Positions 2,600 to 44,300 of a DNA stretch of 64,000 nt are shown one piece after another. The stretch is from positions 5,365 to 69,364 of IMG/VR virus record IMGVR_UViG_3300038312_000168. The stretch is one strand, 5' to 3'. Source of the DNA: a virus. The notes below the pieces were generated by a model. It was not told where the DNA came from, searched no databases, and saw nothing but the letters and a program-made list of their open reading frames with translations. A program made the translations under genes and the position numbers. Position 1 is the first letter of the stretch. Every line of letters starts with the position of its first letter.

Positions 2600-2604
2600 G
2601 TTTA

Positions 2605-2641
2605 GGTTAAGTCAACTTCGGTTGCCTTAACCACTTTTTTT
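2605..2641 (+). terminator. hairpin plus T7 tract (intrinsic-terminator-like)
   Basis: GGTTAAGtCAAC-TTCG-GTTGcCTTAACC (11 bp, one mismatch, UUCG loop) followed by ACTTTTTTTATT, 6 nt after the stop of 2120..2599. Confidence 0.6.
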
Positions 2642-3137
2642 ATTCAATTTTGGTGTTGCTACGAAAGTGTTGATTAGTGTTACGGGATAATACTTTTCGC
2701 TTTGTGGTTGGATGTGGTTACGTGTGTTGATTTTAGTATCGTGAGTGTTACCAGAGCCACATAGCGTTGATTTGAGACAGTTTAGTATCAGGATGTAGTT
2801 TAGTATAGGGAGAAGGGAGATCGTCGATTAGAAGAAGCATGTTTCTAAGGGTATTTGGTTGATTGAGTTTTGATTTAGGTTTATTTTGGGAATTGTATAA
2901 TTGTAGGGTTGATAATGTTAAATCATTATGGATAGTGGAAGTGCTACTGTGGTGTGGTAGTGGTGATTATGAGACATAGAGTCATTAATACTTTAAGGTT
3001 AATTTGGGTTTGGAATTGATACTAAAGTAGAATAACTATCCTCACCTGTCATTACCCTGAACTCGCTATTCGATTTTCAGCATAATCATTTTTGTTATAT
3101 ATTTCTAACATTGTTCATATTAATCCGATCAATAAAT

Positions 3138-3194
3138 CTATATAGTTCTATAGAATCTATATAGTTCTCTATAGTGCTCTATAGGTCACTATAG
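3138..3194. repeat. phased array of six CTATAG / CTATATAG palindromes
   Basis: Copies start at 3138, 3148, 3157, 3169, 3179 and 3189, so spacing is 9-12 bp and the last three are exactly 10 bp apart. Confidence 0.85.
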
Positions 3195-3819
3195 TTATTG
3201 TTAGGTTATCCCTAACTATCACCATATCACCAAACATACATGATATCTCACGATATGTATGTTGCTTATCTATCATGATCTATCATGGTTCGAGTTGCGG
3301 TAAATGGATATTCCCCGCAATTATGAGGAGATTAGAGTATTCGACAAATAGTCGATAATCCTTTGAGTATATCGAATGGATACCGCATAGATACGCAATG
3401 ACGATACCAACATAGCGTCATTATCGTATCACCCTTCAGACTGCATAGAAAACAGGGCATAATGAGCAGGGATTAGAACGCTATACAATGAGGGATTGAT
3501 GATAGACACAAGCAAAAATGAGATCAAGTTAATTCAGTTTTACTTTTACTCTGTCATACCCATATCACTACCCTATGAGACGTACATAGTGCGTCTACAA
3601 TGCGCGCACTCACCTAGATGATATGCGAGTATCCCTATGCTGATATGTGACAGTATAGGGTTACTGTGTGGCTATGTTGTTACCATCTCATGTATGAGAT
3701 AGACCACCATTATTCACCAATGTTTGTGACCATGTATACCTATGTGCATTGATGAACATATGTGAGCATTGATGTATTGATTCGTACATCTACGAAAAGT
3801 AGAGACCGGGGGTGCGGTT

Positions 3820-3855
3820 AGACACCTTCGGTTAAGTGTCTCAAAAATTTTTTAT
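3820..3855 (+). terminator. hairpin plus A5T6 tract at the right edge of the ORF-free region
   Basis: AGACAC-cttcggttaa-GTGTCT followed by CAAAAATTTTTTAT. The loop shares CTTCGGTT with the 2605 hairpin. Direction of action is uncertain. Confidence 0.3.
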
Positions 3856-3955
3856 AAAAAAATAACTAAATCTGGGTAAAAACCCCTAAATAAACCTATT
3901 TCTCAAAAAAGAGTTAAAACCCATTACTTCTCTATTCTTCAAAATTGCAACACTA

Positions 3956-4090
3956 TCAACAATACTCATAACGCTCTGCACATTCTGGATTTGAACACCG
4001 ATACATCTTCATAATATAAACTTCTGTACCAATTTTAAACCCTTTCTTACCACAATAAACAATCAATGAACCACAACGTGAGCAATACAC
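3956..4090 (-). CDS. possible small Zn-ribbon protein (44 aa, GTG start)
   Basis: My translation is (V/M)YCSRCGSLIVYCGKKGFKIGTEVYIMKMYRCSNPECAERYEYC*, with CxxC...CxxxxC. GGTGGTG lies about 14 nt upstream. It is below the track cutoff. Confidence 0.3.
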   Translation of the reverse strand: MYCSRCGSLIVYCGKKGFKIGTEVYIMKMYRCSNPECAERYEYC

Positions 4091-4123
4091 TTTCTTAATT
4101 GTAACACCACCTGATTATCATTT

Positions 4124-5074: not shown

Positions 5075-5485
5075 TTACTTACTCCACCATTCTACACAAT
5101 ATTTCCCATCTCTTCTTTCCCACATCGACGGATCAAATCTAACCTCACATTTATAATCTTCAGCAAGTCTACAAACCTTATCAAAAACTTCATCAGGTGT
5201 AATTTCTCTACCAATCATAGACTGATAAAGAGTATCATAATACACCTTATTTTCATTTTTATCAACAAATTCCTGTTTCACTTTCGCAAACCAAACACAA
5301 TGTTCAGTTAGGTCAAAGTCAGCAGTAGCGTAACAATTAACGGAGCGAATATCCTTGAAACACTTTGATAACTGTTCAACGTTCTCAACATACTTATTTA
5401 AATCGTTAATTACGTGTTTAACATCATAATTTAATGATCCAAGCCCAAATAAAACATCTTTATGCAAAATAATCACCATAACCAT
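5075..5485 (-). CDS. hypothetical protein
   Basis: ATG start; lies in the - strand gene train. Confidence 0.55.
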   Translation of the reverse strand: MVMVIILHKDVLFGLGSLNYDVKHVINDLNKYVENVEQLSKCFKDIRSVNCYATADFDLTEHCVWFAKVKQEFVDKNENKVYYDTLYQSMIGREITPDEVFDKVCRLAEDYKCEVRFDPSMWERRDGKYCVEWWSK

Positions 5486-9955: not shown

Positions 9956-10162
9956 GTTTCTCTTGCACCGAATATTATGTCTACCCTTCGCTATATATGC
10001 GTTGTGTAATGCGTTTGGATTGAAAAACGAGTAAAGAAAGAAAGTTTGAGTTAATTGTAAGGTAAGTGAGTAGACTAATTTAGATTGTGGTTACTTGTAA
10101 GAAAGATGGGTCTATCCCATAAGTCATGTAAGGACATCTGCATATATATTATTAATATTATT

Positions 10163-10368
10163 ATTACTGATTCATTACACGTAATAGAATACAAAAATAG
10201 ATGTGAAATAGAATTACGTGTAAGGAGAAGAGAATAAATATATATTTACTATCATCATTACTGATTTCTTACTGAAAATAGAATACCACATCGATTTGGA
10301 ATTAGGTTTGGTATGGGTTTTGGCATAAATATAATATTTTATAATATATTTATTACATGATTCTTACA
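10163..10368. promoter_or_regulatory. three copies of the motif ATTAC(T/A)(G/T)(A/G)(T/A)TT(C/T)(A/C/T)T(T/A)(A/C)
   Basis: ATTACTGATTCATTACA at 10163, ATTACTGATTTCTTACT at 10257 and ATTACATGATTCTTACA at 10352. In each, the TTAC half-sites are 11 bp apart. Copies are 94 and 95 bp apart. Confidence 0.6.
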
Positions 10369-10537
10369 TGAATATTATTACCAGTAAGAATATAGTATAA
10401 TATATTATTATAATATTCTTACAAGAAATAGAATACAAAATAGAATATCAGTAAGGATAGTAAGTATAATAATCATTATACTATTTCCTTACACTATTCT
10501 TACTGGAAATATAATAGGAATAATGATTTCATAATAT

Positions 10538-10557
10538 TTGTACATATATATGTACAA
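10538..10557. repeat. perfect 20-bp palindrome TTGTACATATATATGTACAA
   Basis: Read directly. A related GTACATATGTAC palindrome lies at 63976-63987. Confidence 0.85.
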
Positions 10558-10589
10558 GTGTAAGGAGGAGTATTAATATCATTTTAAAA

Positions 10590-10726
10590 GGAGCGCGAAG
10601 CGCGATTGGCGGTAGTCGAGCGTCTCAACGCGAGCGTAACCGCTGTGACAAAAAAAAAGAAAAACCGGAAAAAAGAAAATGTAATATTGTGTGGCAACTT
10701 GCCCCACGGAGGACCCCTTACCCCTT
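10590..10726. other. GC-rich structured island inside an AT-rich intergenic region
   Basis: CGCG-AAG-CGCG mini-hairpin, GCGGT...ACCGC enclosing GCGT-ctca-ACGC, an A-rich tract, then three CCCC runs. Confidence 0.5.
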
Positions 10727-10891
10727 ATATTTGAAACTCATAGTATATAAAGGTTTCGGTCCATGTTGATATTTTTGGAGTGTCATATATCTTATTAGAT
10801 ATAAAATATATATATAATTATTACTGATAGTAATATTGGTAATGTGTATCATGCATTTTTACCTACATTTTTCATACGTGCCGCACTGGAA

Positions 10892-11289: not shown

Positions 11290-11529
11290 CTACCATGAGA
11301 AGAGTGCAATGAGGAACCAAATGAAACCTGATAGTGCCTCACTTGCCGCACTCAACTTCATGTTCATGGTAGCAAATGTAATAGCGAGAGTGAAGAGTCC
11401 AATTGAAGTGAAGAGCGCGGTAAAAATGTTTACAGAACCATTGTTGAAGATACAATCGTTCAGTTGAGGAAGAAGAGTAAACGAAAAAGAGAAACCAACG
11501 ATACTAATGATTTTATCTTGCCATGTCAT
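11290..11529 (-). CDS. 3-TM membrane protein with a PQ-loop / SemiSWEET-like pattern
   Basis: 79 aa. LLPQL sits in TM1 followed by GSVNIFTALFTSIG. The gene starts 13 nt downstream of the tRNA-Gln 3' end on the same strand. Confidence 0.35.
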   Translation of the reverse strand: MTWQDKIISIVGFSFSFTLLPQLNDCIFNNGSVNIFTALFTSIGLFTLAITFATMNMKLSAASEALSGFIWFLIALFSW

Positions 11530-11541
11530 GTTCTATTACCA

Positions 11542-11678
11542 TTCTCCCGGCAGGACTCGAACCTGCATTACCGGATTTATTCAGAGTGTGACAGGTGTTA
11601 CCGCCCGCTTCAGGTTAAATTGTGAGTTTTACCCACACTCTTTCAAATTCCGGCATGATACCATTACACTACGGGAGT
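11542..11678 (-). tRNA. tRNA-Gln(UUG) containing a 66-nt bulge-helix-bulge intron
   Basis: The reverse complement has acceptor CTCCCG/CGGGAG, D arm GTGTAATGGTATCAT, anticodon stem CCGGA/TCCGG with loop AT-TTG-A..A, and T arm GCAGG-TTCGAGT-CCTGC. The 1:72 pair looks like A.A in my fold. Confidence 0.8.
11577..11642 (-). other. archaeal-type tRNA intron at canonical position 37/38
   Basis: A 4-bp helix ATTT/GAAT is flanked by the 3-nt bulges GA|A and AA|A and closed by the 8-bp helix AGAGTGTG/CACACTCT. Confidence 0.75.
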
Positions 11679-11680
11679 GA

Positions 11681-11753
11681 TGACAACGAAGGGATTTGAA
11701 CCCTCACTTGACAGTTTTGGAGACTGCTGCACTTCCGATTATGCTACGTTGTC
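11681..11753 (-). tRNA. tRNA-Trp(CCA)
   Basis: GACAACG-TA-GCAT-AATCGGAA-GTGC-A-GCAGT-CTCCAAA-ACTGT-CAAGT-GAGGG-TTCAAAT-CCCTT-CGTTGTC-A gives a full cloverleaf. Confidence 0.85.
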
Positions 11754-11756
11754 TAA

Positions 11757-11837
11757 TGTGTCAGACAGGGTTTGAACCTGTGATACCCTTCGGCAAAGGA
11801 TTTTAAGTCCTCCGTGTTTCCGCTCCACCACTGACAC
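11757..11837 (-). tRNA. tRNA-Leu(UAA), class II with a long variable arm
   Basis: Acceptor GTGTCAG/CTGACAC, anticodon arm GAGGA-CTTAAAA-TCCTT, variable arm TGCCGAAGGGTATC, T arm ACAGG-TTCAAAC-CCTGT. Confidence 0.8.
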
Positions 11838-11939
11838 GCTATTTACTTCATTACACGTTGAACAATAAATAACTTACGTTATATTCCTGATATACAAAAG
11901 GAAGGATTTAATTAACTATAATTAAAACACATAAGATAT

Positions 11940-12341
11940 ATGATGAGTAATAGTTTATCTGATCTTGCTTATTGTGGTGGATTATTCGACGGTGAGGGAT
12001 GTGTTACACTTACAAAAGACGGTGATTCAAATTATAGATTACGATTGAAAATAACATCAACTGATTATTCTGTTCTTGCGTGGTTACAAGAACATTTTGG
12101 TGGGTTTATACATCTTTCACATAAGGAAAGTGAATACAATAAAGAATCATGGGATTGGTATTGTAAAACTGAAGATCAGATTGTGTTTCTGTTTGGTATT
12201 CTCCCTTACACTATAATCAAACGCGCACAAATCATTGAAGCATTGAATTATCATTTTGAAAAACAGAATGGTGGAAAGTTAACTGAAGATGAATTTGTAT
12301 TACGAGAAAGATATTACATGAAATTAAAATCAATGAAATAA
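11940..12341 (+). mobile_element. free-standing LAGLIDADG homing endonuclease (133 aa, single motif)
   Basis: LAYCGGLFDGEGCV near the N-terminus. Sits between the tRNA cluster and the structural operon. Confidence 0.65.
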
Positions 12342-14585: not shown

Positions 14586-15434
14586 ATGACTTTTCCCGTT
14601 GAATATTACAGACAGATAAAGGATGCCATTGTCTTTACCGCGCGTAAACAGGCAGTAGCACGTAAGATTATTAATACCCGTAACATTTCCGGTGGCATTG
14701 GTGTTCAGCAGTGGACGTATGACACTGCAAATGAAGTTTCGGATGCTCTGCTTACGTATCAGTTCACTGACACGGCTGAGGATTGGATTGAACTTGCTCG
14801 TACTGACATTCCTATTCCGCTTCTGCATAAAGAGTTCCGTATTTCTCGTCGTGATCTTGCCGCTGCTGCTCGCGGTGGATTTGGTATTTCGACCGCTACT
14901 GTTTCGAGTGCTGCCTACAAGGTTATGAATCTTGAGAACCAGTTAATTCTTAATGGTTTTGCTGCCGATGGAACTAACTATGATATCAGGGGTCTTTACC
15001 AGAGTGCAGGTAATTCTTACACTGGTACTAATGACTTTGGAACTGCCGGAAAGCCGATTGAGGCGGTTGCAGGTGCCATTGATCTGATGCAGGCTGATAA
15101 TATTACCGGCCCGTATAACCTTGTTCTGAATCCCACGCAGTATATGGAACTTGCAATTTCGATTCTTGGTTCTGGTGCAGGTGAGCGTGAGATTGCAATG
15201 GTTAAGGAGATTCTTGAGGGTGGAAGTATTTATTCTACGTCCTTCCAGACTGCCGGAACGGGTATGCTTCTTGCTGATGCTTCCGCCGGTTTCTTTGAGA
15301 TGGTTGTCGCGCAGGATATGACCACTGAGACTGAGGTGCTTCAGAAATCTAAGGATCTTTGGGGTAGAGTTTACGAGTGTGTCATTCCTGTCGTGTATGA
15401 CTCTAATGCGATTTGTAAGTTAACTACTATCTAA
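14586..15434 (+). CDS. major capsid protein, HK97 fold, encapsulin/linocin-M18-like
   Basis: [59 protein letters not shown] and [11 protein letters not shown] align with my recollection of Thermotoga encapsulin ([61 protein letters not shown]). Confidence 0.7.
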   Translation: [282 protein letters not shown]

Positions 15435-18984: not shown

Positions 18985-21900
18985 ATGCAACTTGGAGATA
19001 ATGACATTGTAATTTATGTTGGCGGTAATATTACTGACTTACAAAATAAGATGAGACAGGCACAAGGTGTTACCGCCGCTACCAGTGCATCAATAGCAGG
19101 AACAGTAGGACGTATGGGCGGTTCTATTGAAAGGACATTAAAAACCACAGGTAATACCATTGTTGGTGCTACTGGTGCTGCTTCTGTCGCAATGGTTTAT
19201 CCTCTTACTCGTATTGCAGGTTCCATTTTTGAAATCGGTAGTGAACTTGACTCCATGTCACAGAAAACTGTATCAGTCTTTGACTTAATGGGTAGAAGTG
19301 TAAACGATGTTAAGAAAGATTTAGAAGATTTTGCTTTTTCACTTGCCGGTAATGCAATGTTCTCCGCTAATGAAATCATGGAGAGCATGTATGGCATGGC
19401 TCAGGCAGGTATGCAGGTTGAAGATATTTACACTTTAATGCCTGAAGTTATCAACCTTGCAACTGCGCAAAACATGGATCTTGATACCACTTTTAGAATG
19501 TTATACGGAACATTGCAGGCATATAAATTAAATGCTTCTGATGCTACAAAAGTAACTCATGCTATGGCAGCATCAATGAGTGCTTCAGTGCTTGATGCTG
19601 AAGATTTAGTTTACGCATTGAAATATATTAATCCTACATTTGCTGCACTTGGTTACAGTTATAATGAAGGATTAACAATGATTGCAATGTTACGTGATTT
19701 AACTTTCACTGGTCAAAATGGTGGAAGAATTTTACGTGACGCTTTTACTGATTTAATCGCTCCTACTTCTGAAGCAATAAATATTATGCGTAAGTGGGGC
19801 ATTTCAGTTTATACAAATAGCGATGAAATAAATGGTTTAGTTGCTGAGTATTATAGTGCATCTGAAGCACTTGATCAGATGAAGAGTGATACATCTGCAT
19901 CTAACGAAGAAATACAAAAACATAAAGATTTTATTATTCAGTTACAAGGGCAGATGGTAGGTTTAGATAAATCATCTGAGCAATATAAGAGTTTAAAGAA
20001 GGCGCTTGATGAAGCACTTTACGCAGAACGTGTAATGAAGAATGAAGTCAAGAAATCAAGCACCGAAATTGATAATCAAACTGCAAAAGTAAAAGCCCTT
20101 GAAAAACAAGTTAATGATTTTTCTGCTACCGGAATGAAAGCGCCTGCTGAAATTCTTAATGAGTTGTGGAAGGCGCGTGAAGCGGGTATGACTGAAGGGG
20201 AGTTTTCTACCGTTTTCGGTAAACAGTCATATGCCGCAATGATGCAACTCACCAGAGATAAGGAAAAATACGCTGAAGTTTTAGAGTATGTTACATACAC
20301 TGAAGGTGAAGTGAATGAAGCGCAAAGACAATCTGATATTGTTACCGCTTCTACTGCTGCAAGTTGGACTATTTTAACCAATCATATTTCATCAGCGGCA
20401 GGTGAAATTTATAGATCAGTAGCACCTGCATTAAAGGTTTTATTTGATTCGTTAAATGAAAACTTCGATGGTATCAAAGAGTTTTGTATTCTTGTAGCAC
20501 AGAACTTTGTTCCTATCTTACAGGATATTGCAAATCGTGTAATTGGTGTAGTTACATGGTTTAATGGATTAGATGAAGGAACAAAGAATCTTATTGCAAA
20601 AATAACAGCAATGGGTGTTGCATTTACACTTATTGCTGTTCCTCTAATGTTGTTTACTGGTATCATTCTATGGACACTTTCACCTATTGTGGGATTCATC
20701 GGTAAGATTGGACTTGCAGTTGAGCGCATTGGTATCTTACGTGCTGGAATGATTGCATTTAACAAAGATGCAACAATCTTTGGCATGAATATAATGAATA
20801 TTAAGGGCTCATTAAGTTCTTTTTTAACCACATTAACAAAAGGAACTAGCGCGAAAGGTATAACCGCTGTTACTGGTGAAATATTTTCATCAACGAAAGC
20901 ATTAGAAGCATTAGGTAGTGCAGGAATGATGATCAATCCTACACTTGTAACAACTGCCGCAACAACAGCAGGTGTAGGGACTGCTACTGCCGGTTTGGGT
21001 GCTACAATAATTTCAACGCTTGGTGCTATTTTACCACCAATACTTATAGCAGTTGCAGCAATAACCGCACTCTGGTTTGCCTGGAAGAATAACTGGTTTG
21101 GAATCAGAGATATTACTGCAAGTGTTATTGAGTTTATTACAGAACATTTCAAGGTTTTCTTTGAATTTATTGATTCTACATTTGGTGTAATCTTTAATAG
21201 TATTTCAAATCTTATTGATGCCTTTATTAACGGTGATGTTAATGGTCTATTCAGTGCTTTAGGTAGTCTTATTGGTGGAATTGTAAGACTAACACTTGGT
21301 TTACCTGAAACGTTTTTAAAAATCGGTAGACAAATGATCATTGATCTGATCAGAGGTGTAATTGCTGAAGCACCAAACACTGGACCTGCGTTAATTAGAT
21401 GGATTGTTGACGGTGGTATTCAAGAGTTTTGTTTAGCGGCGATTCGTGCTGCCGTTGATGCTGGAATTGCATTTGTCAAAGGTTTTATTGATGGAATAAT
21501 GGGTAAAGCACCCGAAGTTAAAGATAAATCTAAACCTACCGGTAAAGCGGTAACTGATGGTATTAAAGAAGGTGCTGAATCTGGATTATCAGACGTTTAT
21601 AAGACAATGGAAGATGGTGCTGTAAAGAGTGCCAATATTTTTGAGCAGAAATTCAATGATACGTTTAGTAAATTGGATACCAAGAATCTTACTGAAGATG
21701 AATTAAATAATTTTAAGGCACTTGAACTTTCAAGAAAAGTTGTTGATTTAACAGAATTAACAGACGATGATAAACAGTTCATTGGTGAATTACAAACTTT
21801 AATTGAAGAAAATGGTGGTGAGATTCCAGAGAAGTTAAAGAAGAAGATTGATGAACAAGTTAAAGAACAGAAACCGTGGTCTGCGTTCCATGAAGATTTT

Positions 21901-30500: not shown

Positions 30501-31020
30501 CACCTCTTCGGGAGATTCGTACCAACACGGGCATATCTATTACCCGTTTATGAAGTTCCGTGATCTGGATCTATCCGTCACTCTTAACGGGACTGCTTCG
30601 CTGTATGGAGCGTTCATCCCCCTGTTCAACGCATACGGTTCATCATCGGGTAGAATTATCAATTATTACGGGGTTTATCTCAGATCTTCAAATAGCGACA
30701 TCATCATAACAGCATTTAACTCTGATGGTATGGCGACAGGAACGCCCCTCGCTTTAGGTGCAATTACCCCCATATTCCCTGCAACTCTGCGTGTGACGGT
30801 AAGTGCATCAGGACTTGTAACAGCGTATTATGGGGGGGTTGCCATCTGCTCCTGCTCGATACCCGCGCTGGTAACGTCTCCGTTCATGGCTGCTATTGAG
30901 GTGATGATTCGGACACAGAATACGAACCTTACATTCGACAATCTCCAAATCTCCGGCACTAGAGTCTACAACAAACCCATCCACCGAGGAGCAATGCTTG
31001 GATTATACTCTACGAGTTGA
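27571..31020 (+). CDS. large tail tip / receptor-binding protein, paralog 2, with ConA/LamG-like C-terminal domains
   Basis: 1149 aa. Shares its N-terminus with 24117..27008. The C-terminal half has a lectin-fold-like signature (GNYHTLKVVWTTTGITFYLDGSLG). Confidence 0.55.
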   Translation: MYIGDIYLPILSSIDKKSVSKITKEIAGINISDPKTISIRRNLQPVTLDGYLYNDGEKNDAQYAEDVEALQYRSAGYCYTKYADLDGFIEIESADAPQTSEELGVRNYSIEGKYLPATKYERVVEVETEMRENEFNIEFPPHVALPIGATNVRVKTSQDSVKLPTPAFMAGDLPIYRPFPAFYPDNVIHSTSDTPKYDKTAYKMSYNLLDAKDESISYTMVSGVDIPLGSYRVVLRIKADSTVNGDVKITVSDGTNNVVDSLHTLVGDGVWNIVKTASFSILQRGLTYTVTVSKATDSVSNIAVNYGFLLPEKRARVAFDVAVEYDVGECKVYDTVTTDAAEADWIQVYNPEHDFAGDIVVQNSMFRWVIKQTAWKDATKVYNVTGTSPVEIGELYNKAFGDDSVAIKFKEIKPNYLKFTFELDTGNATSESTSAKEIDTVEITPFNVVIDKDVIGTYKDHYTFESTPGALVEYENGIIAGIDANSVYGLIKSVDVTSSIDGDIIETTGSESSDSYVVPFVIPCEITSYLYKQATDLVISKDNNDIERKFWKDDFSVDSFPFYDNVVANSKNYFTVSGGELVFNTNGESVQPEIVSQFAGCKYGEYELVFKVNDPEIDTKKLISILFAVNGVNYWGVLLTREIGNTISRCYLHKNNVIVSGSGKTYDSINFNDGNYHTLKVVWTTTGITFYLDGSLGNTYAPTSNNYPSISDAKIGVGIPYIQYSCNANIASITYRPSISYTDDFTTDTVSGANGRYQAVTGTVAYDDVNKRMNVTTATGANGKASGRLKSYKFTEGSQIYDVTLPTGADGDFITLVTHPANGLMTDGIGVGLQSDGAGNWNLATLSGTTVTEGADSGLDDGDVARIEIEKDLSGAYWYYIYNAAGAKPATPTGKLFTTLSEGYTGWYANGAGAETQTYAIDNISIRAESIVGRTNVEVEEPFWFRDEFSENSLGRAVTVVGGSSMAIAVADGALRFTSSGDSYQHGHIYYPFMKFRDLDLSVTLNGTASLYGAFIPLFNAYGSSSGRIINYYGVYLRSSNSDIIITAFNSDGMATGTPLALGAITPIFPATLRVTVSASGLVTAYYGGVAICSCSIPALVTSPFMAAIEVMIRTQNTNLTFDNLQISGTRVYNKPIHRGAMLGLYSTS

Positions 31021-31025
31021 TAATA

Positions 31026-31730
31026 ATGAATACTTTTAAATTTTATTGTGGAAAAAAAGTATATTTTGATGAAGAAACAAATAGACATTATATTTTAGAG
31101 AAAAAAACATCATCAAATAATTACCGTAGAAGATATGGTGAGATAAAAACGTGTAAAGAATGTGGCAATGAATTTTTTACAATTCATGACAGTGAATTTT
31201 GTTGCAAAGTGTGTATGGGTATATATGTAGAAATAATTGATATAAATATTGTTGATGGATTATATGTTTATGTAACTTCAAATCTTGATTATTTTATCTA
31301 TACAAATGAATATGGTAAATATAGAAAACGATATGGTTTTCTAAAAAATTGTAAATTTTGTGGGAAATTATTTTTTGCACATAAAGAAAAAACAATGTTT
31401 TGTTCAAATTCGTGTAAATTTAGCGGTGAAAACAGTTATTCTTATGTTGATGGTAATACTGATTTAAAACATTCAATGAGAACATCAACAAAATATAAAA
31501 CATGGCGTGAAAATGTAATGACACGCGATGAACATACTTGTAAAAATTGTGGATGTAAAAGTAATTTAGATGTTCATCATATTGTTACTGTTGAAGATAT
31601 TTTTGAAACATATGAAATTGAAGATATATTAGATATGCGTAACTGTGAATTTCTGTGGGATGAAGATAACGGTATAACTCTTTGCCGTGATTGTCATATT
31701 GGAGTGCATAATGGGAGTGTTAGTTTATGA
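31026..31730 (+). mobile_element. HNH homing endonuclease with duplicated N-terminal Zn-ribbon modules
   Basis: CKNCGCKSNLDVHHIV...NGITLCRDCHIGVHNG forms the HNH core. Two repeats are present: YRRRYGEIKTCKECGNEFF...CCKVC and YRKRYGFLKNCKFCGKLFF...CSNSC. Confidence 0.8.
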
Positions 31731-35553: not shown

Positions 35554-36189
35554 TCATAAAAAGTTGAGTGCTTCAATAGTCTCTTTTGGGAGTTTAATCT
35601 TCAATGCACCATTTTTATAATCTGTAATCAAGTCAGAAAGTTTAGGATACGCTTCAAGTAACTTCTGTGCGCGTCTATCACCCACTCCAGGCAAGGACAA
35701 GTAAATGTCATAGAGTGGATTTGTACTTGACTTAACTTTCTTATGCTTAACACTCTCTACTTTCTTACCCTTGCCTACCATTTCACGGATCTTAAAGATT
35801 GCATGGAATAATTGAGGCGCGGTATCAAATTGAATCATCTTTACATTATACCTTGCTGCTACAGAACAGAGGGAACCAACAGTATGTGTGGTTTTCCATT
35901 GTTTAGCGTAAGGAATAAAGTAGAGACTCTTGAAATTACCGTGTATGAAAAGGTAAGGTTCATCAAACTGTTCAAGGTTGGTAAGTTGAGTTTCTAATCT
36001 TCCATCGCGCACCGAATTGACAAAATCAGCAACAGATTTACGTTCAATGACAATCTTCTTCTCACCATCAATAACCCAAGCGAAATCACCCGATTCCATA
36101 TATTCAAAACGGACTTCAACATTTAATGTTTTTGCAATGCGAGCAATCTTATTTTGAACAGTTTTGGGTTCTCTTGTATCTACAATCAA
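35554..36189 (-). CDS. XPF/Hef/Mus81-family (ERCC4) nuclease with C-terminal helix-hairpin-helix
   Basis: VDTREP...VIERKSVADFVNSVRDGRL contains the ERK motif; LPGVGDRRAQKLLEAY is the HhH. Apparent TTG start. Confidence 0.7.
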   Translation of the reverse strand: MIVDTREPKTVQNKIARIAKTLNVEVRFEYMESGDFAWVIDGEKKIVIERKSVADFVNSVRDGRLETQLTNLEQFDEPYLFIHGNFKSLYFIPYAKQWKTTHTVGSLCSVAARYNVKMIQFDTAPQLFHAIFKIREMVGKGKKVESVKHKKVKSSTNPLYDIYLSLPGVGDRRAQKLLEAYPKLSDLITDYKNGALKIKLPKETIEALNFL

Positions 36190-36202
36190 ATATTCTATGG
36201 TA

Positions 36203-37282
36203 TCACCTATATATTTTTACTAAATGTTTGTCTATCGTTCCATACTCTCTTGTAAAGTCACAGTAACCAGGATGAGGACAATAACCATACTGCTTGACAA
36301 GTTCACAACGTGGGAAAATAGGTTGGTTGTAAACATCAAGCAGTCTATCAAGTTGTCGCTCTTCTACAATGCAATGATACGCCTCTGTGCGTCCATTACG
36401 TGTGCTTACAAGATATTTCTCAAGTATATCCTTGATCTCGCCATAGAGGAAACCACTATCACGCAGGTAGGAAATAAGCAAGTAGCGCCCTCTAAAACCT
36501 ACTCGTTTTGACATACTGTTTATCAGTAAGGATGAAATGCATGGTGGAAGAGATTTGAGTAGAGAATCATGCGTTATCTGCCTACAAATGGCTTCATCAA
36601 ACTCAAATCTATAATCTTGTAAGGAGAGTGAATTACAGCGATTACAATAGTATTTTCCACCCACATCAAACATTTCCATGTTTAGGTATTTGCTACCGTA
36701 AATTACATAATCACATGGATGTGGTTGCACTGTAGCCTTACGCTGTATGAACTTCAATCCACGCTCAAGATCATCTGTTGTAAGGGGTATGCAGTATCTA
36801 CCACGACGATTGTTGAATGTTCCGGGAATGGTTGCTACACGCGCAATATCTCCCATGACTTTCTCATCCATTGTAGTCAATTTGAACTTCCTTACAAAAA
36901 ATGTGTGTGCGCTAAAGAGTGCTGCTTTCTTATTCTTCAAATCCGTGTAATTCTTGGTAAAGAGGTAGAAGTGAAATCCATTACCAGAATAAAGCATCAA
37001 GTAGCGCATATTACGCTTATCAAACTCATTTGAGAGTTTAACTGCATCAACAAATGATTTCTCGCCGTCAAGGTCAAAGAATATCTTATCTACGTTGAGG
37101 AATGCATTATCATACACTTCAGAGGACGTATAATTATAAATGGTAGCAAACACCCGCTTGTATGATTTATAGCGATTTATCTGCTCGTAAAATTCCTCAG
37201 AAGTATTTGTTGTAATCCGGTAAGGAATAGAAATTTGACGCGGGAATGAATCATAAAGTAACTTGTGAATAGTAGCGCACAC
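36203..37282 (-). CDS. archaeo-eukaryotic primase, PriS catalytic domain fused to a PriL-like Fe-S domain
   Basis: IFFDLDGE (DxD) and SGNGFHFYLF mark the PriS core. The C-terminal LPPCISSLL...RGRYLLISYLRDSGF...YHC...FPRC...YCPHPGYC gives a PriL-CTD-like pattern with five Cys. Confidence 0.7.
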   Translation of the reverse strand: MCATIHKLLYDSFPRQISIPYRITTNTSEEFYEQINRYKSYKRVFATIYNYTSSEVYDNAFLNVDKIFFDLDGEKSFVDAVKLSNEFDKRNMRYLMLYSGNGFHFYLFTKNYTDLKNKKAALFSAHTFFVRKFKLTTMDEKVMGDIARVATIPGTFNNRRGRYCIPLTTDDLERGLKFIQRKATVQPHPCDYVIYGSKYLNMEMFDVGGKYYCNRCNSLSLQDYRFEFDEAICRQITHDSLLKSLPPCISSLLINSMSKRVGFRGRYLLISYLRDSGFLYGEIKDILEKYLVSTRNGRTEAYHCIVEERQLDRLLDVYNQPIFPRCELVKQYGYCPHPGYCDFTREYGTIDKHLVKIYR

Positions 37283-37333
37283 AATCTTCCACCACTATTC
37301 TATATGTAAAAAAGAGTTTAAATAGATTGTTAT

Positions 37334-38008
37334 TTAGAGGAAGTCATCTTGTGTGGTTTCATCATAAATCATGTCACATATGTAGGCAAATTCACAATAA
37401 TTGCACAACCATGATGGTTTTGCTTCAAACTTCTTTTCTTCAATCTTCTTTACTGTATTGTCAAACTTACGTAACACGGATTTAATACGTTTCTGTTCCA
37501 CATCTTCAATGAAAGAATCATCAGGATAACCAGTAAAGAATATGCCAACCTGATCAATAGTTATTCCAGTTGTTTTCTGCACTAGGTAGACATACAAGTG
37601 TAGTTCATCAAGATAATTCTTGTAATCACTTACACGATACTTACCCGTCTTGTAATCAACCAGGATGTTCTTACCATCTTTCTCATAAATTGCATCAATG
37701 ATTCCTACAAGATTCTTCTCTTCATCATACAATTTACGTTCAGCGTAGGTAGCACGATCAAGACCAAACATGGAAAGAATGATGTAGAAGTTACCAATAT
37801 GTGTCTTGTAGAAATCATCCTTCATTAAGAACTGCTCGTAGTATTCAAAGTCTGCTGCATTTTTATTGAAAGATTCAAATAGTTCATGCAGAGTGCTACC
37901 TTTCTTCGCTGCTTCATTTGAAACGCGGTCCTTACCATAAATCGTGTAAGTCTCAATGTAGAACTTGCGAGGACACTTACGGTAAAGATACATTTTACTC
38001 TTACTCAT
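37334..38008 (-). CDS. Cas4/RecB-family PD-(D/E)xK nuclease with a Cys cluster
   Basis: N-terminal YRKCPRKFY, IIDAIYEK...LVDYKTGK, and C-terminal CNYCEFAYIC. Confidence 0.7.
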   Translation of the reverse strand: MSKSKMYLYRKCPRKFYIETYTIYGKDRVSNEAAKKGSTLHELFESFNKNAADFEYYEQFLMKDDFYKTHIGNFYIILSMFGLDRATYAERKLYDEEKNLVGIIDAIYEKDGKNILVDYKTGKYRVSDYKNYLDELHLYVYLVQKTTGITIDQVGIFFTGYPDDSFIEDVEQKRIKSVLRKFDNTVKKIEEKKFEAKPSWLCNYCEFAYICDMIYDETTQDDFL

Positions 38009-38016
38009 GCGGAACT

Positions 38017-38250
38017 TCAAATCCTTACCTCCTTACCGCTCATCCATGCCTGTAACCATCCACGTTCTGCCCAATACTTACACATATCAACAAATTTGTA
38101 AGTCTTGTTCTCATACTCTACTTTACGTGGAATATTCTTACCATTGACAAAATCAAAGAATGCCATTTTCATTACTGATTCAAAAGAATCAAAGGTAATC
38201 CATCGTTCATTTTGCATTGTTTCCATGTAGTAATAATGTGCAACTGACAT
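38017..38250 (-). CDS. hypothetical protein
   Basis: ATG start; lies in the gene train. Confidence 0.5.
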   Translation of the reverse strand: MSVAHYYYMETMQNERWITFDSFESVMKMAFFDFVNGKNIPRKVEYENKTYKFVDMCKYWAERGWLQAWMSGKEVRI

Positions 38251-38344: not shown

Positions 38345-38539
38345 TTACCAACATCCATAGTCTGTTAAATCGATACATTCACCACAATTTTCACATTCCG
38401 CTTTATGAACACAACCAATTCCTGTTCCAATAATGTGTAAGTGAATCGTTAATTCATATTTATTATCATCAAAACAACGCTCATGTCGAGCGATAAACTG
38501 ATTGAGTTGTGCAAGTTCATTTTCGTTTAGTTCTAACAT
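38345..38539 (-). CDS. small Cys-rich protein
   Basis: ATG at 38539 forms a TAATG junction with the RNR stop; GGTG lies upstream; contains CENCGECIDLTDYGCW. Confidence 0.5.
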   Translation of the reverse strand: MLELNENELAQLNQFIARHERCFDDNKYELTIHLHIIGTGIGCVHKAECENCGECIDLTDYGCW

Positions 38540-41500
38540 TATCCGCACCTACTGTATCCACACGCACAAGTCTTACAACCTTCAACCATACTTAAATGTT
38601 CACCACATTCAGGACAGATATTTGATTCAGTCTTTATTTCTTCCTTACATGGAATAGAAATTGGTTCTGATTCTTTATCAGGAATCAGACTTTCAATTAC
38701 TCGACCGATAACATCCGAGCATGATTTTCCATCACAATTACCTTCAGAGAATTTCTTGTAAGCGACAGGACAAGTAACATTACGTAAAGTCTTGATTATA
38801 TCCCAGGTAGGAACATTCCAACGCATTGAAAGAGAAATCATCTGTCCCAATGCATCATTCATAGCGGTGCAACCACCTTTGTTGTTTATAATGCATTCAT
38901 AGGGTTTACCATCTTTTTCTGCAACGGAAATGATAAGTTTACCACAACCTGAACGTCTCTTACTATTTGTAGCGGGAAGATCAGATGGGCGCTTAGGTAG
39001 GATTCTACCATCGGGGAGTGGTGTTGTAGGGGTGGAATCTTTCTTGAGTTCCATTACAATATCATCTCTGCTACCTGTTACATAAATGGTAACTCCCTTA
39101 CATCCTTTCTCATAAGCGTAAAGAATAGCACTTCTAATATCGTCTTTAGTAGCGCCTGGAGGCATGTTAATTGTCTTACTGATTGCAGCATGACAATACT
39201 GTTGAAACGCTGCCTGCATGTCAATGTGTGACTTCCAATCGATGTCAAGAGCCGTCTTGAACACAGATTTAAACTCTTTAGGCAACCATGTAATATCTTG
39301 AATAGTCCCTGTTTCGTAAGCATGATTGATTACTTCCTGCTTCTTTTTGTCCCATTGTGAAACCTCAACATGTGATTCAATGTAATTATTCAGTTTTTCT
39401 TCAAAGACTGGATCAACCATCAGGTATCCTTTCTTTTTACCATCTACCCATGTATACCGCTTGTGAACCAGGGAATAAACAGGTTCAATACCATATGAGG
39501 TTTCAGAGAGTGTTGCAATACTTCCAGTGGGTGCTATACATGTTGTAGTTGCATTACGTATGGGTATATCATGTAGGAACCAATCAGAACCTTCATATGC
39601 TGGAAATACACCAAGTTCTTTTGCAAGTTCTCTTGATGTTAGAACAGACATATCATTAAGAATGCCCATAACCTTTTTTGCCTGATACAGTGCATCAGAA
39701 CTATCGTAAGGAATACCCATCTTCATTAGCATGTGATGGAATCCCATGTAACCTAATCCAATCTTACGAGTCTTTCTACTCGCTTCTGCAATCTCTTCAA
39801 TAGGATATTTGTTAAGATCAATAATCTTATCAAGAAACTCTGTTGAAAGTTCAATGGTATTTATTAAATCATTTTGCATTAATCCATTATTATTAACAAA
39901 GTTAGATAAATTTATACTGCCTAGATTACATGATTCGCCTGGTAATAGTGGTTGCTCTCCGCAGTTAGAGGCCAATATGCCGTTGAAAATGCCAGTATGG
40001 TTCTTAGGCTCGTTGAAACAGTAAACCTTGTCTACAATTTCATTGTTCCGTTCAATAGATACAATTTTAATAAACCTTTTTGCATCTCTTTTATTAGTTG
40101 TTACAGTGGGGACTCTATATGTTTTAAACCCAAGATCAACCAATTTTTTAACATTAGATGCAGGAATTGTAAGTCTATAACAATCAAGACAATAATATTC
40201 TTTTTGACCACCATTACCATCGGGCATTAATTTATAATCAGATTTTTTCATCAAATTAACAGAAGTATTAATACCAAGTGTATCAAGCATATATTTTACA
40301 TCCATTAAAAAATCTCTTTTAACAGATGAAATAGCGATACTACCTTCACTTGTATTTTTACATCCATCACTGTCAACAATTCCTGCTAACCATTCTAATC
40401 TTGATTTAATTGTATATGAACAATTAGGAACAAACAATTTTTCATAATCACCCTGTAATGTAACAAGAATTCTATCGTGATCATCACTTTGATTATAATT
40501 AACACGTTTTGCATTTAAATATTCTACTAAATCTTTTTTAATTCCATATAAATATATATACTTTATACCATTTGATTGACATTTATAACCATCACCACTA
40601 AAGAAACCATGTGTATATGCAAATTCAAGTTCTTTTTTACCCTCAATAACGGGGTAATCACACTTGATAAGTTTGTCACCTACTACTAAATCCTTTGCTT
40701 CTTTTTTAACAATTTTATTTTTATTACCTTTATAACCATATTGTAAAACAAACTTATGATAAGGAGTACATTTTACTTTGTTACCATCACTGAATGTTAC
40801 TTCCATAACCTCTTGATCGTATCCAGTAACACACGGAGTAACAACACTCCATTCAAACCCATTCCAGATAGTTGTTTCTTTATCTACACACTCATCAATG
40901 CGCTTATATCCTTCATTGGTAAGAATGAGTGTTTCACCAACCAAACACGGATTGGTTGCTTCAATATTACCAAGATGTTTGCAAGTATTATCATCATTAA
41001 TTGTATTGTAGAATAATACCCCTGGTTCACCTGTCTTGGAAATTCCATCTACAATCTTATCAAAAACTTCTTTCGCTCTGATTGTTTTGTAAACTTTACC
41101 ATCGAAGTGAAGATTATACTCTTTATCATTCTTTACAGCACTAATAAATTCATCATCAATCATTACAGAAATATTGAAGTTAGAAAGATCACCTTCAGTA
41201 TTCTTACACGCAATGAACTTCTCAATATCTGGATGCCAAACAGGGAGAACACCCATATTCGCACCCCTTCTTTTAGATCCCTGAACCACAGCACCAGTAG
41301 CAGCATTAAACACTTTCATGAAAGAAATGGGGCCTGATGCAACACCATCTGTTCCATTTACTTTGTCACCTTCAGGTCGAAGATTACCAAAGGAAAATCC
41401 TGTTCCACCTGCTGCCTTATGAATTAATGCGGCATTTTTAATTGCATCAAAAATACTTTCCATTGAATCATTTACAGGAATTACAAAACATGCAGAAAGT

Positions 41501-41700
41501 TGTCCTATTTCCGTTCCTGCATTCATAAGTGTAGGCGAATTAGGCACAAAATCTTTATTCACCATCATATCATAGTAAATCTCTCGTTCATCGTCCGTAT
41601 TTCCTACATAGTCTGCAACTCTTCTACAGACATCTTCCCAGGACGATTCACCTTCACGGAAATAACGAGCAGCAAGAACTTCATTAACAATGTCACTCAT
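38539..41700 (-). CDS. nrdJ: class II (B12-type) ribonucleotide reductase interrupted by an intein
   Basis: The TNP|CGEQPL thiyl-radical loop is split by the insertion. Also GGTGFSFGNLRP and a C-terminal Zn ribbon (CPECGEHLSMVEGCKTCACGYSRCG). About 725 aa after intein removal. Confidence 0.8.
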   Translation of the reverse strand: MSDIVNEVLAARYFREGESSWEDVCRRVADYVGNTDDEREIYYDMMVNKDFVPNSPTLMNAGTEIGQLSACFVIPVNDSMESIFDAIKNAALIHKAAGGTGFSFGNLRPEGDKVNGTDGVASGPISFMKVFNAATGAVVQGSKRRGANMGVLPVWHPDIEKFIACKNTEGDLSNFNISVMIDDEFISAVKNDKEYNLHFDGKVYKTIRAKEVFDKIVDGISKTGEPGVLFYNTINDDNTCKHLGNIEATNPCLVGETLILTNEGYKRIDECVDKETTIWNGFEWSVVTPCVTGYDQEVMEVTFSDGNKVKCTPYHKFVLQYGYKGNKNKIVKKEAKDLVVGDKLIKCDYPVIEGKKELEFAYTHGFFSGDGYKCQSNGIKYIYLYGIKKDLVEYLNAKRVNYNQSDDHDRILVTLQGDYEKLFVPNCSYTIKSRLEWLAGIVDSDGCKNTSEGSIAISSVKRDFLMDVKYMLDTLGINTSVNLMKKSDYKLMPDGNGGQKEYYCLDCYRLTIPASNVKKLVDLGFKTYRVPTVTTNKRDAKRFIKIVSIERNNEIVDKVYCFNEPKNHTGIFNGILASNCGEQPLLPGESCNLGSINLSNFVNNNGLMQNDLINTIELSTEFLDKIIDLNKYPIEEIAEASRKTRKIGLGYMGFHHMLMKMGIPYDSSDALYQAKKVMGILNDMSVLTSRELAKELGVFPAYEGSDWFLHDIPIRNATTTCIAPTGSIATLSETSYGIEPVYSLVHKRYTWVDGKKKGYLMVDPVFEEKLNNYIESHVEVSQWDKKKQEVINHAYETGTIQDITWLPKEFKSVFKTALDIDWKSHIDMQAAFQQYCHAAISKTINMPPGATKDDIRSAILYAYEKGCKGVTIYVTGSRDDIVMELKKDSTPTTPLPDGRILPKRPSDLPATNSKRRSGCGKLIISVAEKDGKPYECIINNKGGCTAMNDALGQMISLSMRWNVPTWDIIKTLRNVTCPVAYKKFSEGNCDGKSCSDVIGRVIESLIPDKESEPISIPCKEEIKTESNICPECGEHLSMVEGCKTCACGYSRCG
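39964..40947 (-). mobile_element. intein (328 aa) with a LAGLIDADG homing endonuclease domain
   Basis: Starts CLVGETLILT and ends GILASN, followed by +1 Cys of CGEQPL. Internal LAGIVDSDGC and HGFFSGDGY motifs. Confidence 0.8.
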
Positions 41701-42999: not shown

Positions 43000-43872
43000 T
43001 TACACCAACATCTGTTTCAAGTAAAAGTCAATCTCACTCTGCATATAATTAAGCGATAAATTGTTGTTTAATCTACACGTAAACAATTCACTGTCTCTGT
43101 GTATCGTAAACATTCCTTCATCTCTCTCTACACGTTCCTTGCCTACACGTTTAATTCTGGTAGACAAATCAGCGTAGACACGAATGCACTTGATGTCATA
43201 CACTTCACCGAAGTTCTGCATGAGGTAAATCAATCCACGCTCATCAATTACATATGTGTTATAATCCAGCACATCCTTCTTCAAACAACAGTAACGATAC
43301 CCACCAAACTCTGTGTAGGCAATCATATCATCGCGTGAGAAGGTATCAAACTCTTCTTTGGTTACAAAAGTATGTCCTGTCTCACCTGGATAACGTATAG
43401 GACGATCCGTGTAGGACTCCATCATCTTGATACCATGCTCACGCTCAATATACTCTGCAATGGTTGTCTTACCACTTCCTGACTCGCCCACAATACAGAT
43501 AATAAGGGGTTTACGATTTACCTTACGCATTACATGGTAGCGAATATCATTCCAACAAATAACCCTGTGTGAGTATTCCTTATCATCAATATAAATATCT
43601 GCACCAATCTTTCTACAATCATTACCATATTCCTCAATGCGGTAACAAAGATTCTCATTGACATCATTGAACTTGATTTCATTATCAATGAGAAATTCAA
43701 CCATTTCACGTTCTTCTCTCCCTTGACGACATGAATTGATGATAATATCATGTCCCTCATCATATAGTTCATTGATTACCTCTTTAGCATTACGCTTCAG
43801 ATAACCAATGTCAGGATACTTGTTTGTTACAATAGTCCCGTCAAAATCTACTGCAATAACTAATTTCTTCAT
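43000..43872 (-). CDS. fusion of a HAD-type phosphatase with a guanylate-kinase-like (d)NMP kinase
   Basis: The N-terminal LVIAVDFDGTIV carries DxDxT; ...ADIYIDDKE follows. The C-terminal IVGESGSGKTTIAEY...ESYTDRPIRYPGETGHTFVTKEEFD gives a Gmk pattern. Confidence 0.65.
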   Translation of the reverse strand: MKKLVIAVDFDGTIVTNKYPDIGYLKRNAKEVINELYDEGHDIIINSCRQGREEREMVEFLIDNEIKFNDVNENLCYRIEEYGNDCRKIGADIYIDDKEYSHRVICWNDIRYHVMRKVNRKPLIICIVGESGSGKTTIAEYIEREHGIKMMESYTDRPIRYPGETGHTFVTKEEFDTFSRDDMIAYTEFGGYRYCCLKKDVLDYNTYVIDERGLIYLMQNFGEVYDIKCIRVYADLSTRIKRVGKERVERDEGMFTIHRDSELFTCRLNNNLSLNYMQSEIDFYLKQMLV

Positions 43873-44300
43873 TAAGTCACCACACATACAATAATAAATC
43901 CAATCATAAAACCAATAAGAATACAAACAATGTAAGAATAATTTTGATCTATTATATTACCAATAGTTCTTTCTTTGACTTGTTCATCAGTAATCAAAAC
44001 TTCTTCCTCTTCTTCTTCCATATTCTCCAATTCTTCAATGATCATATCCACATCAATGAATCGTGCTTCTGGTTGTGGATTTACTTCTGCCATTGATTTA
44101 AGTGTAAAGAGAGAACGTGTAACAACAACAGCAAGTTCTTCATCCTCAAATGATGCAATATTCACTGCACCATTGACAAATCCATTAACATCATACATTC
44201 CTGTTATGTCATTGTAATGACACTCAAATCCACAGAAATCGAGGAAATTGTAAGGAGTGTAACATTTACACTCCTCATTGTAAATATCCAGGCAAATCAA
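43872..44300 (-). CDS. hypothetical protein with a poly-Glu stretch and a C-terminal TM anchor
   Basis: TTG start 6 nt after GGTG. The C-terminus is YIVCILIGFMIGFIIVCVV. Confidence 0.45.
   Translation of the reverse strand: MICLDIYNEECKCYTPYNFLDFCGFECHYNDITGMYDVNGFVNGAVNIASFEDEELAVVVTRSLFTLKSMAEVNPQPEARFIDVDMIIEELENMEEEEEEVLITDEQVKERTIGNIIDQNYSYIVCILIGFMIGFIIVCVVT

Follow-up and report, generated by a model that had tools for sequence, protein, structure and literature searches.

The closest described counterpart of the element reported here is found in halovirus HGTV-1 (NC_021328), where a gene at 49226-49328 on the minus strand carries the GenBank annotation 'tRNA Ala (tgc) + Intron' and is mentioned again in a 2026 re-analysis (PMC13532342). 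ARAGORN reads this gene as i(37,31), with an intron of 31 nucleotides (nt), and the intron forms a canonical bulge-helix-bulge (BHB): UUUG pairs with CAAA in the central helix, the bulges are CA/A and UU/A (here and below a slash within a bulge or a junction marks the cut site) and GAGU pairs with GCUC in the outer helix. Full-text literature searches produced no other case of an intron-bearing viral tRNA. In the archaea themselves, pre-tRNAs occur with canonical introns at position 37/38 that have the hBHBh' arrangement, in which the motif lies between two further helices, and the EndA/RtcB pathway by which archaeal pre-tRNAs are spliced has been reviewed (PMC4090602). Here we describe an hBHBh' intron in a tRNA-Gln(UUG) gene carried by an uncultivated tailed virus, within a 64,000-nt stretch of IMG/VR record IMGVR_UViG_3300038312_000168 (positions 5,365 to 69,364), referred to below as the window.

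The gene is matched over its whole length by the full Rfam tRNA model (RF00005) with 45.3 bits, compared with a gathering score of 29, and the alignment places a 68-nt insertion inside the anticodon loop. ARAGORN in intron-search mode arrives at identical gene coordinates and a 66-nt intron. On the minus strand the relevant region runs CCGGA-AUUU-GAA-AGAGUGUG...CACACUCU-GAAU-AAA-UCCGG, so that the anticodon stem is followed by two bulges of 3 nt on opposite strands, with exactly 4 bp between them, and then by an outer helix of 8 bp, where 2-3 bp would be the minimum for the motif (Table 1). A cut after the second nucleotide of the first bulge falls after A37, one nucleotide 3' of the anticodon, which puts the intron at 37/38 and gives the spliced loop A-U-UUG-A-A. 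The exons by themselves form a complete cloverleaf with a 7-nt anticodon loop, as seen both in a full-model Rfam match and in an ARAGORN call on the spliced sequence; the 71 nt left after excision at the BHB cut sites are called tRNA-Gln(ttg). The locus is thus confirmed as a tRNA-Gln(UUG) gene with a canonical hBHBh' intron at 37/38, and a first-pass annotation made from the letters of the window, which had proposed this identity, the intron boundaries, the helices and the cut sites, proved right in every detail.

Compared with cellular archaeal pre-tRNAs, the geometry, the position and the predicted cuts are identical, and circularisation of the intron would be expected here as there; the difference is that the gene is viral. 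Compared with HGTV-1, both viruses appear to be tailed viruses of archaea, with a tRNA cluster and a 37/38 BHB intron, and HGTV-1 too encodes RNA ligases, of the Rnl2 type (PMC8651126). The two differ in most other respects. HGTV-1 infects Halogranum, has 34-36 tRNA genes, with tRNAs of about 55% G+C, and encodes its own RtcB and CCA-adding enzyme, whereas the virus of the window comes from a digester or fermentation source rather than a hypersaline one, has a G+C content of 36% and three tRNAs, and no RtcB was found in it. The intron is 66 nt rather than 31 nt long, lies in tRNA-Gln rather than tRNA-Ala, and its conservation and covariation can be followed across 11 variants. The first-pass annotation had supposed that intron-containing viral tRNAs are rarely described; so they are, but HGTV-1 tRNA-Ala(UGC) is a precedent, and the present case is a further example of something already known in archaeal viruses.

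Self-splicing group I introns likewise interrupt the anticodon loop in a prokaryotic setting. They are found in bacterial, cyanobacterial and phage tRNA and protein genes, contain a P1-P9 core and are longer than about 200 nt. A group I intron was rejected for the insertion in the window, which has only 66 nt, no match to Rfam Intron_gpI, and BHB geometry instead. The euryarchaeal tRNA-Trp intron, a C/D box guide RNA, is like the one in the window a long (about 60-100 nt) and conserved BHB intron, in a context of euryarchaeal type. The latter, however, has neither a C/D box pair nor a match to an Rfam small nucleolar RNA or small RNA family; with no UGAUGA and no Rfam C/D match, an intron bearing a C/D box small RNA, recognisable by C (RUGAUGA) and D (CUGA) boxes in a k-turn and by complementarity of its guide, was likewise rejected.

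The identity of the anticodon deserves comment, since the available tools can mislead. In its default mode ARAGORN misses the gene altogether, calling only the neighbouring tRNA-Trp and tRNA-Leu. In intron mode, a check that the first-pass annotation had proposed, the same gene and the 66-nt intron are found, but the intron is placed at 34/35 and the gene is labelled tRNA-Stop(tta), both in the window and at all related loci (L014, L016, L019, L028-L048). Taken literally, the label would make the gene an ochre suppressor with anticodon UUA, a reading to which we attach almost no likelihood. The 34/35 placement disregards the BHB, at junctions so rich in A and U that several alternative excisions leave a 7-nt loop, while cutting at the BHB sites yields UUG in both of the sequence types encountered; moreover, open reading frames (ORFs) that are well read under the standard code end most often in TAA (45 of 69). 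Automatic annotation of such loci therefore carries a double hazard, in that the gene may be overlooked or may wrongly suggest stop-codon recoding. The mature UUG anticodon is predicted to read CAA and also, through wobble, CAG. In the ORFs of the window, whose genome is A+T-rich, 46% of Gln codons are CAA and 29% of Leu codons are UUA, and codon supply is the likely payoff of the viral tRNA.

Could the BHB geometry have arisen by chance? Among 1,000,000 shuffles of the intron with the exons held fixed, the 4-bp central helix was present in 4%, but only a fraction of 3e-6 combined it with a correctly registered outer helix of 8 bp or more, which excludes a chance origin of the geometry. The whole precursor also folds better than its own shuffles (z = -3.6).

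Relatives of the gene were collected through protein-anchored searches of IMG/VR and through exact-pattern scans that specified the acceptor-stem ends only; the pattern ACTCCCGTAG-N(100-125)-TCCTGCCGGGAGAA was found in four viral contigs and 15 metagenome contigs. Together with the window, the 22 related loci give 23 sequences, of which 11 are distinct, and the intron is present in every one. Copies with the same acceptor ends and the shorter spacing N(40-60), as expected of an intron-less gene, were absent from the viral contig collection. When the cloverleaf-plus-BHB structure is laid over the 11 distinct sequences, 99.1% of the cells hold standard pairs, a figure that falls to 32-47% if the partners are slid by one to three columns. 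Double, compensatory changes are seen at three pairs, and none of 500 shuffles reached the observed values. One is in the D stem (U-A and G-C); one, in the anticodon stem, forms the series C-G, U-G, U-A, with the wobble intermediate in L036; and one is in the central BHB helix, where A32-U in the window is replaced by C32-G in 10 of the 11 variants, all four pairs of this helix being 100% paired. The outer helix is without any variation across the 11 variants. That compensation has kept the BHB geometry in 11 variants would be unexplained without an enzyme that recognises the BHB.

Independently of the intron, other genes of the window also point to archaea. An ERCC4+HhH nuclease matches archaeal XPF/Hef, and its only homologues in a comparison set of 50,697 phage records are in the Methanobacterium viruses PhiF1 and Drs3. 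In the same set, an adjacent archaeo-eukaryotic primase-like protein matches only PhiF1 and tailed viruses of Haloarcula. The gene order PDDEXK nuclease-primase-ERCC4 (35554-38020, minus strand) is that of ORF56-55-54 of PhiF1 (L051:3324-5646), at 28-30% identity. The best match of the terminase extein is in ANMV-1, a virus of uncultured ANME-1 archaea, and that of the family B DNA polymerase (PolB) is in Halorubrum tailed virus 25, slightly ahead of T4-like cyanophages. PhiF1 (MK994522), a Methanothermobacter virus, is for part of the replication module the closest isolated virus and also shares a ThyA-like protein and a dCTP deaminase; it differs in having a DnaE-type polymerase, a pseudomurein endoisopeptidase and a capsid without detectable similarity. 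Neither PhiF1 nor the capsid relatives at or below 60% identity (L024-L027, L030-L032) have tRNA genes. The clamp loader was also considered as an archaeal marker, given its match to the NCBIfam RFC small subunit, and was dropped when its best isolate matches proved to be gp44 proteins of T4-like cyanophages.

The tRNAs themselves give a similar picture. In the tRNA-Trp of the cluster G1-C72 is combined with A73, which is also the base at this position in tRNA-Gln; the corresponding tRNAs of HGTV-1 show the same. G1-C72/A73 is the archaeal and eukaryal identity set for tRNA-Trp, whereas bacterial tRNA-Trp has A1-U72/G73; bacterial tRNA-Gln has U1-A72/G73. Among metagenome-assembled genomes (MAGs), relatives of the capsid occur in archaeal assemblies assigned to Methermicoccaceae (52-54% identity) and Methanolobus (33%). 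Judged from gene content and tRNA identity elements, the host is most likely an archaeon, probably a methanogen or one of its relatives from anaerobic digesters. The first-pass annotation had called the intron direct evidence of an archaeal host; the inference to archaea holds up well against these data, but 'direct' is too strong a word for splicing that is predicted.

Taken together, we consider it very likely that the locus encodes a functional viral tRNA-Gln(UUG) with a 66-nt archaeal-type intron, in a virus of archaea whose host enzymes carry out the splicing. Several observations nevertheless weigh against this. The minimum-free-energy (MFE) fold is not the BHB but an adjacent register whose internal loops are symmetric, and the BHB-constrained fold lies 2.3-3.6 kcal/mol above the MFE in all variants. 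The acceptor pattern used in the scans fixed 24 exon nucleotides, so that divergent or intron-less relatives may have escaped. The double changes all separate the lineage of the window from the others and hence represent few independent events. The A1/A72 mismatch at the top of the acceptor stem is unusual for tRNA-Gln, the archaeal norm being A1-U72, and could impair function. As to the host, PolB and the clamp loader resemble T4-like cyanophage genes about as much as archaeal ones and do not discriminate, and capsid relatives closer than the archaeal ones are found in MAGs labelled 'Bacilli bacterium' (91%), 'bacterium' (93%) and 'Acholeplasma sp.' (60%). The mismatch (11678 and 11543), together with A73, is seen in 11 of 11 variants, but these bases were fixed by the search pattern.

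A bias toward a non-BHB register is also seen when the annotated intron of HGTV-1 is folded, and we therefore take the MFE preference as a recognised shortcoming of the energy model rather than as counter-evidence; folding energy alone, as a route to the structure, returns the BHB register neither here nor for the HGTV-1 intron. RNAalifold also favours the alternative register. That register, however, is broken in the window by a U-U opposition, whereas the BHB pair at alignment columns 33/103 is compensated, being C-G in 10 sequences and A-U in one. The comparative data thus favour the BHB register, and this contrast is the sharpest comparative argument for selection on the BHB fold.

The MAG labels invite a different reading, in which the host is a low-G+C bacterium of the Bacilli or Acholeplasma and the insert is not spliced by EndA, the locus being a tRNA pseudogene, a tRNA-like decoy or the substrate of some other processing route. 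The 36% G+C of the window would suit such a host, and T4-like PolB and clamp loader genes occur in bacteriophages too. Yet this reading leaves the compensated BHB geometry unaccounted for, along with a 66-nt insert that lies far below the size of group I introns and matches no ribozyme family, ERCC4, primase and terminase homologues that point only to archaeal viruses, and a tRNA-Trp without the bacterial identity elements. The labels themselves are open to doubt: the bacterial-labelled contigs are short or virus-sized and of low G+C, and mis-binning by composition is common for short viral contigs. Mis-binning is probably the simplest explanation of the labels, and the annotation of the capsid in those MAGs as an encapsulin shell protein, seen with relatives L030 and L031 and protein P0014, is probably a mis-annotation. 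We regard a bacterial host as very improbable. MAG labels were also tried as a route to the host and abandoned, as a genome scan with the capsid alignment gave only three loci, whose labels disagree ('bacterium', Acholeplasma and Methanolobus). Where, as here, such labels suggest Bacilli or Acholeplasma and the intron suggests Archaea, a viral tRNA with a canonical BHB intron may serve as a marker of host domain that can be read from sequence.

If the host is indeed an archaeon, we infer the following course of maturation. The Leu(UAA)-Trp(CCA)-Gln(UUG) cluster would be transcribed from the minus strand as one precursor, which is likely because the three genes lie only 2-3 nt apart on the same strand, with host RNase P and RNase Z trimming the ends. 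Around its anticodon, pre-tRNA-Gln would adopt the hBHBh' fold, host EndA would cut each 3-nt bulge behind its second nucleotide, and the halves would be joined by an RtcB-type host ligase, the intron probably being circularised; CCA would be added by the host CCA-adding enzyme. To our knowledge, BHB introns are removed only by archaeal and eukaryotic splicing enzymes. A scan of about 70 ORFs revealed neither a tRNA-intron endonuclease (EndA) domain nor an RtcB domain, and host enzymes would therefore most likely do the splicing. The dependence on host EndA and RtcB that the first-pass annotation had put forward is consistent with this result.

The virus does encode an RNA ligase, which raises the question of whether it, and not host RtcB, joins the exon halves, making maturation partly autonomous. 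The protein has a PF09414 RNA_ligase domain and an AlphaFold model with a predicted local distance difference test score (pLDDT) of 90.7, whose best Foldseek matches are T4 Rnl2, archaeal Rnl3, Naegleria Rnl5, T4 Rnl1 and fungal Trl1, with DNA ligases lower; a profile search agrees. The same role has been suggested for the Rnl2-type ligases of HGTV-1 (PMC8651126). The chemistry is less favourable: EndA leaves a 2',3'-cyclic phosphate and a 5'-OH, and an ATP-dependent ligase that joins 5'-phosphate to 3'-OH ends would need a kinase and a cyclic phosphodiesterase as well. The neighbouring gene, a fusion of a HAD phosphatase of the BT0820 family with a guanylate-kinase-like P-loop kinase, is not Pnkp-like: the resemblance is superficial, and profile searches group the kinase with nucleotide kinases. 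RNA repair would be an equally good role for the ligase. Virus-autonomous ligation is consequently not supported, and we think it distinctly improbable. A healing-and-sealing pair of Pnkp and RNA ligase, of the T4 type, was considered and rejected: the ligase, of the covalent nucleotidyltransferase superfamily, is there, but the HAD-kinase resembles guanylate kinases and BT0820, and its match to Pnkp1 covers the P-loop only. RNA repair, joining of tRNA halves and RNA circularisation are all possible roles for the ligase.

The interior of the intron is as well conserved as the exons that flank it. Mean pairwise divergence among the 11 variants is 8.2% for the intron and 8.5% for the exons, while divergence from the window is 11-19% for the intron and 18-22% for the exons, the latter despite their 24 pattern-fixed nucleotides. 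All 11 variants share, without any change, the 14-nt stretch AAAACUCACAAUUU of the interior. Conservation of this order, and the retention of the intron in every copy found, might mean that it is a functional viral RNA, the excised circle acting as a decoy, a regulator or a stable small RNA, or that an intron-dependent modification or the timing of tRNA-Gln maturation requires its presence. The sampled viruses are closely related, however, and a short divergence time may explain the conservation; moreover, 14 of the 44 interior columns do vary. Searches at E<=1 across 11400-11950 gave no Rfam match other than tRNA, C/D families included, and the intron has no C box. Within the window, neither a second copy of the intron nor a convincing target rose above chance. 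The one candidate target, a 13-nt complementarity in the mRNA of the tape-measure gene (19065-19077, plus strand; E = 0.04 within the window), shows no co-variation in the relatives and was put down to chance. An exact-pattern scan with the conserved core of the intron against one genome per prokaryotic species found no match that might indicate a cellular source.

We rate a function of the intron beyond interrupting the gene as unlikely. The same modest standing applies to its more specific forms, in which the intron becomes a stable circular RNA with a role in infection or acts as a gate that ties the supply of tRNA-Gln to host splicing, with a variant in which the viral RNA ligase does the joining or circularising. 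Were any of these true, the conservation of the intron would reflect selection on the intron RNA itself. The suggestions of the first-pass annotation that the intron serves as a regulatory checkpoint or protects against anticodon nucleases are speculation. Leaving aside any function of the excised RNA, the preferred reading of a host-spliced viral tRNA extends intron-bearing viral tRNAs beyond the haloarchaeal HGTV-1, to a virus with nearest isolated relatives on methanogens or ANME archaea and with an intron that is stable across variants. It would also offer a naturally occurring substrate with which to ask why a virus should keep an intron that appears to make its tRNA dependent on host splicing enzymes.

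Table 1. Features of the tRNA-Gln(UUG) locus and of other parts of the window. Sequences are written in the sense of the indicated strand; a slash within a bulge or junction marks the predicted cut.
Feature	Position	Strand	Basis or remark
Precursor tRNA-Gln(UUG), 137 nt	11542..11678	-	RF00005, ARAGORN; no encoded CCA, A1/A72 mismatch, discriminator A73
5' exon, 36 nt, ending ...CCGGA-AUUU-GA	11643..11678	-	Sequence and BHB cut rule
BHB intron, 66 nt, canonical 37/38	11577..11642	-	Sequence, Rfam, ARAGORN
3' exon, 35 nt, beginning A-UCCGG	11542..11576	-	Sequence
Anticodon stem (helix h), 5 bp, CCGGA with UCCGG	11649-11653 with 11571-11575	-	Sequence
Central BHB helix, 4 bp, AUUU (tRNA positions 32-35) with GAAU (inside intron)	11645-11648 with 11579-11582	-	Sequence, covariation
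5' bulge GA/A, 3 nt	11642..11644	-	Sequence; predicted EndA cut 11643/11642, from the established BHB rule
3' bulge AA/A, 3 nt	11576..11578	-	Sequence; predicted cut 11577/11576; invariant in all variants
Outer helix h', 8 bp, AGAGUGUG with CACACUCU	11634-11641 with 11583-11590	-	Also in MFE fold; invariant and 100% paired in 11 variants
Predicted exon-exon junction GCCGGAAUUUGA/AUCCGGUAAUG, also written GCCGGAATTTGA/ATCCGGTAATG			In the other sequence type CTGGACTTTGG/ATCCAG
Predicted circular-intron junction ...CACACTCTGAATAA/AAGAGTGTGGG
tRNA-Trp(CCA), intron-less	11681..11753	-	ARAGORN, Rfam; 2 nt upstream of tRNA-Gln
tRNA-Leu(UAA), intron-less	11757..11837	-	ARAGORN, Rfam; first in cluster
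GTAAGTTATTTATT, candidate BRE/TATA-like element	11864..11877	-	27-40 nt upstream of tRNA-Leu; conserved in L014
Stand-alone HNH endonuclease gene	11940-12341		Adjoins tRNA cluster
Stand-alone HNH endonuclease gene	31017-31730
HK97/encapsulin-like capsid protein	14586-15434
ERCC4+HhH nuclease	35554-36189	-	Matches archaeal XPF/Hef
Archaeo-eukaryotic primase-like protein	36203-37282	-	Matches PhiF1 and Haloarcula tailed viruses
Ribonucleotide reductase with LAGLIDADG intein	38539-41700	-
HAD phosphatase (BT0820 family) and guanylate-kinase-like P-loop kinase fusion	43000-43926	-	True start probably near 43872; adjoins RNA ligase
RNA ligase	44301-45191	-	PF09414 RNA_ligase domain
Terminase large subunit with LAGLIDADG intein	59312-61834	-

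The remainder of the window is that of a tailed virus, with an HK97-type capsid protein, terminase, tape-measure (a 1362-aa ORF of fitting size) and tail proteins. Among its further genes are a head-morphogenesis protein, the family B DNA polymerase, the clamp loader and genes of nucleotide metabolism; there are also two inteins and two stand-alone HNH endonuclease genes, one of the latter beside the tRNA cluster. Contig names that read 'fermentation metagenome' point to engineered anaerobic fermenter or digester systems; ENA contigs UOOM01005144 and UOOK01009469 are examples from digester or fermentation samples in which the virus occurs. No isolated phage matches the window at the nucleotide level, and none is related at the level of the capsid.

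Upstream of the cluster, GTAAGTTATTTATT is a plausible archaeal promoter element, of the kind formed by a B recognition element (BRE) and a TATA box, and a similar element, GTAAGTTTATAA, lies upstream of the PolB gene. TATA-like hexamers in the window are most frequent at 31-40 nt before start codons. Sigma-70-like promoters and intrinsic terminators are no more frequent than in shuffled sequence. The promoter-type results do not discriminate cleanly between the domains.

The tRNA cassette itself is variable in close relatives. In L014 (4997-5235, minus strand), and likewise in L023, L034, L044, L047 and L048, as well as in L038 (2275-2361), tRNA-Trp is replaced by a tRNA-Thr(UGU) and two aberrant tRNA-like genes. 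The first of these, of 85 nt, has an 8-bp hairpin instead of an anticodon arm and scores 37.8 bits with the Rfam tRNA model; the second, of 77 nt, gives a weak tRNA-Sec-like match (25 bits).

Two regions stand out elsewhere. About 1.5 kb at 2600-4120 is without ORFs of at least 50 aa and has no Rfam match at gathering scores; it contains six copies of a 10-nt tandem repeat, TCTATATAGT, at 3137-3196. The other, at 10100-10850, is an A+T-rich stretch of direct and inverted repeats with TTCTTAC/GTAAGAA units and includes a 55-nt tandem array (10327-10453). Lying between divergent gene blocks and at the minimum of the cumulative GC skew, it may be an origin of replication or a regulatory hub.

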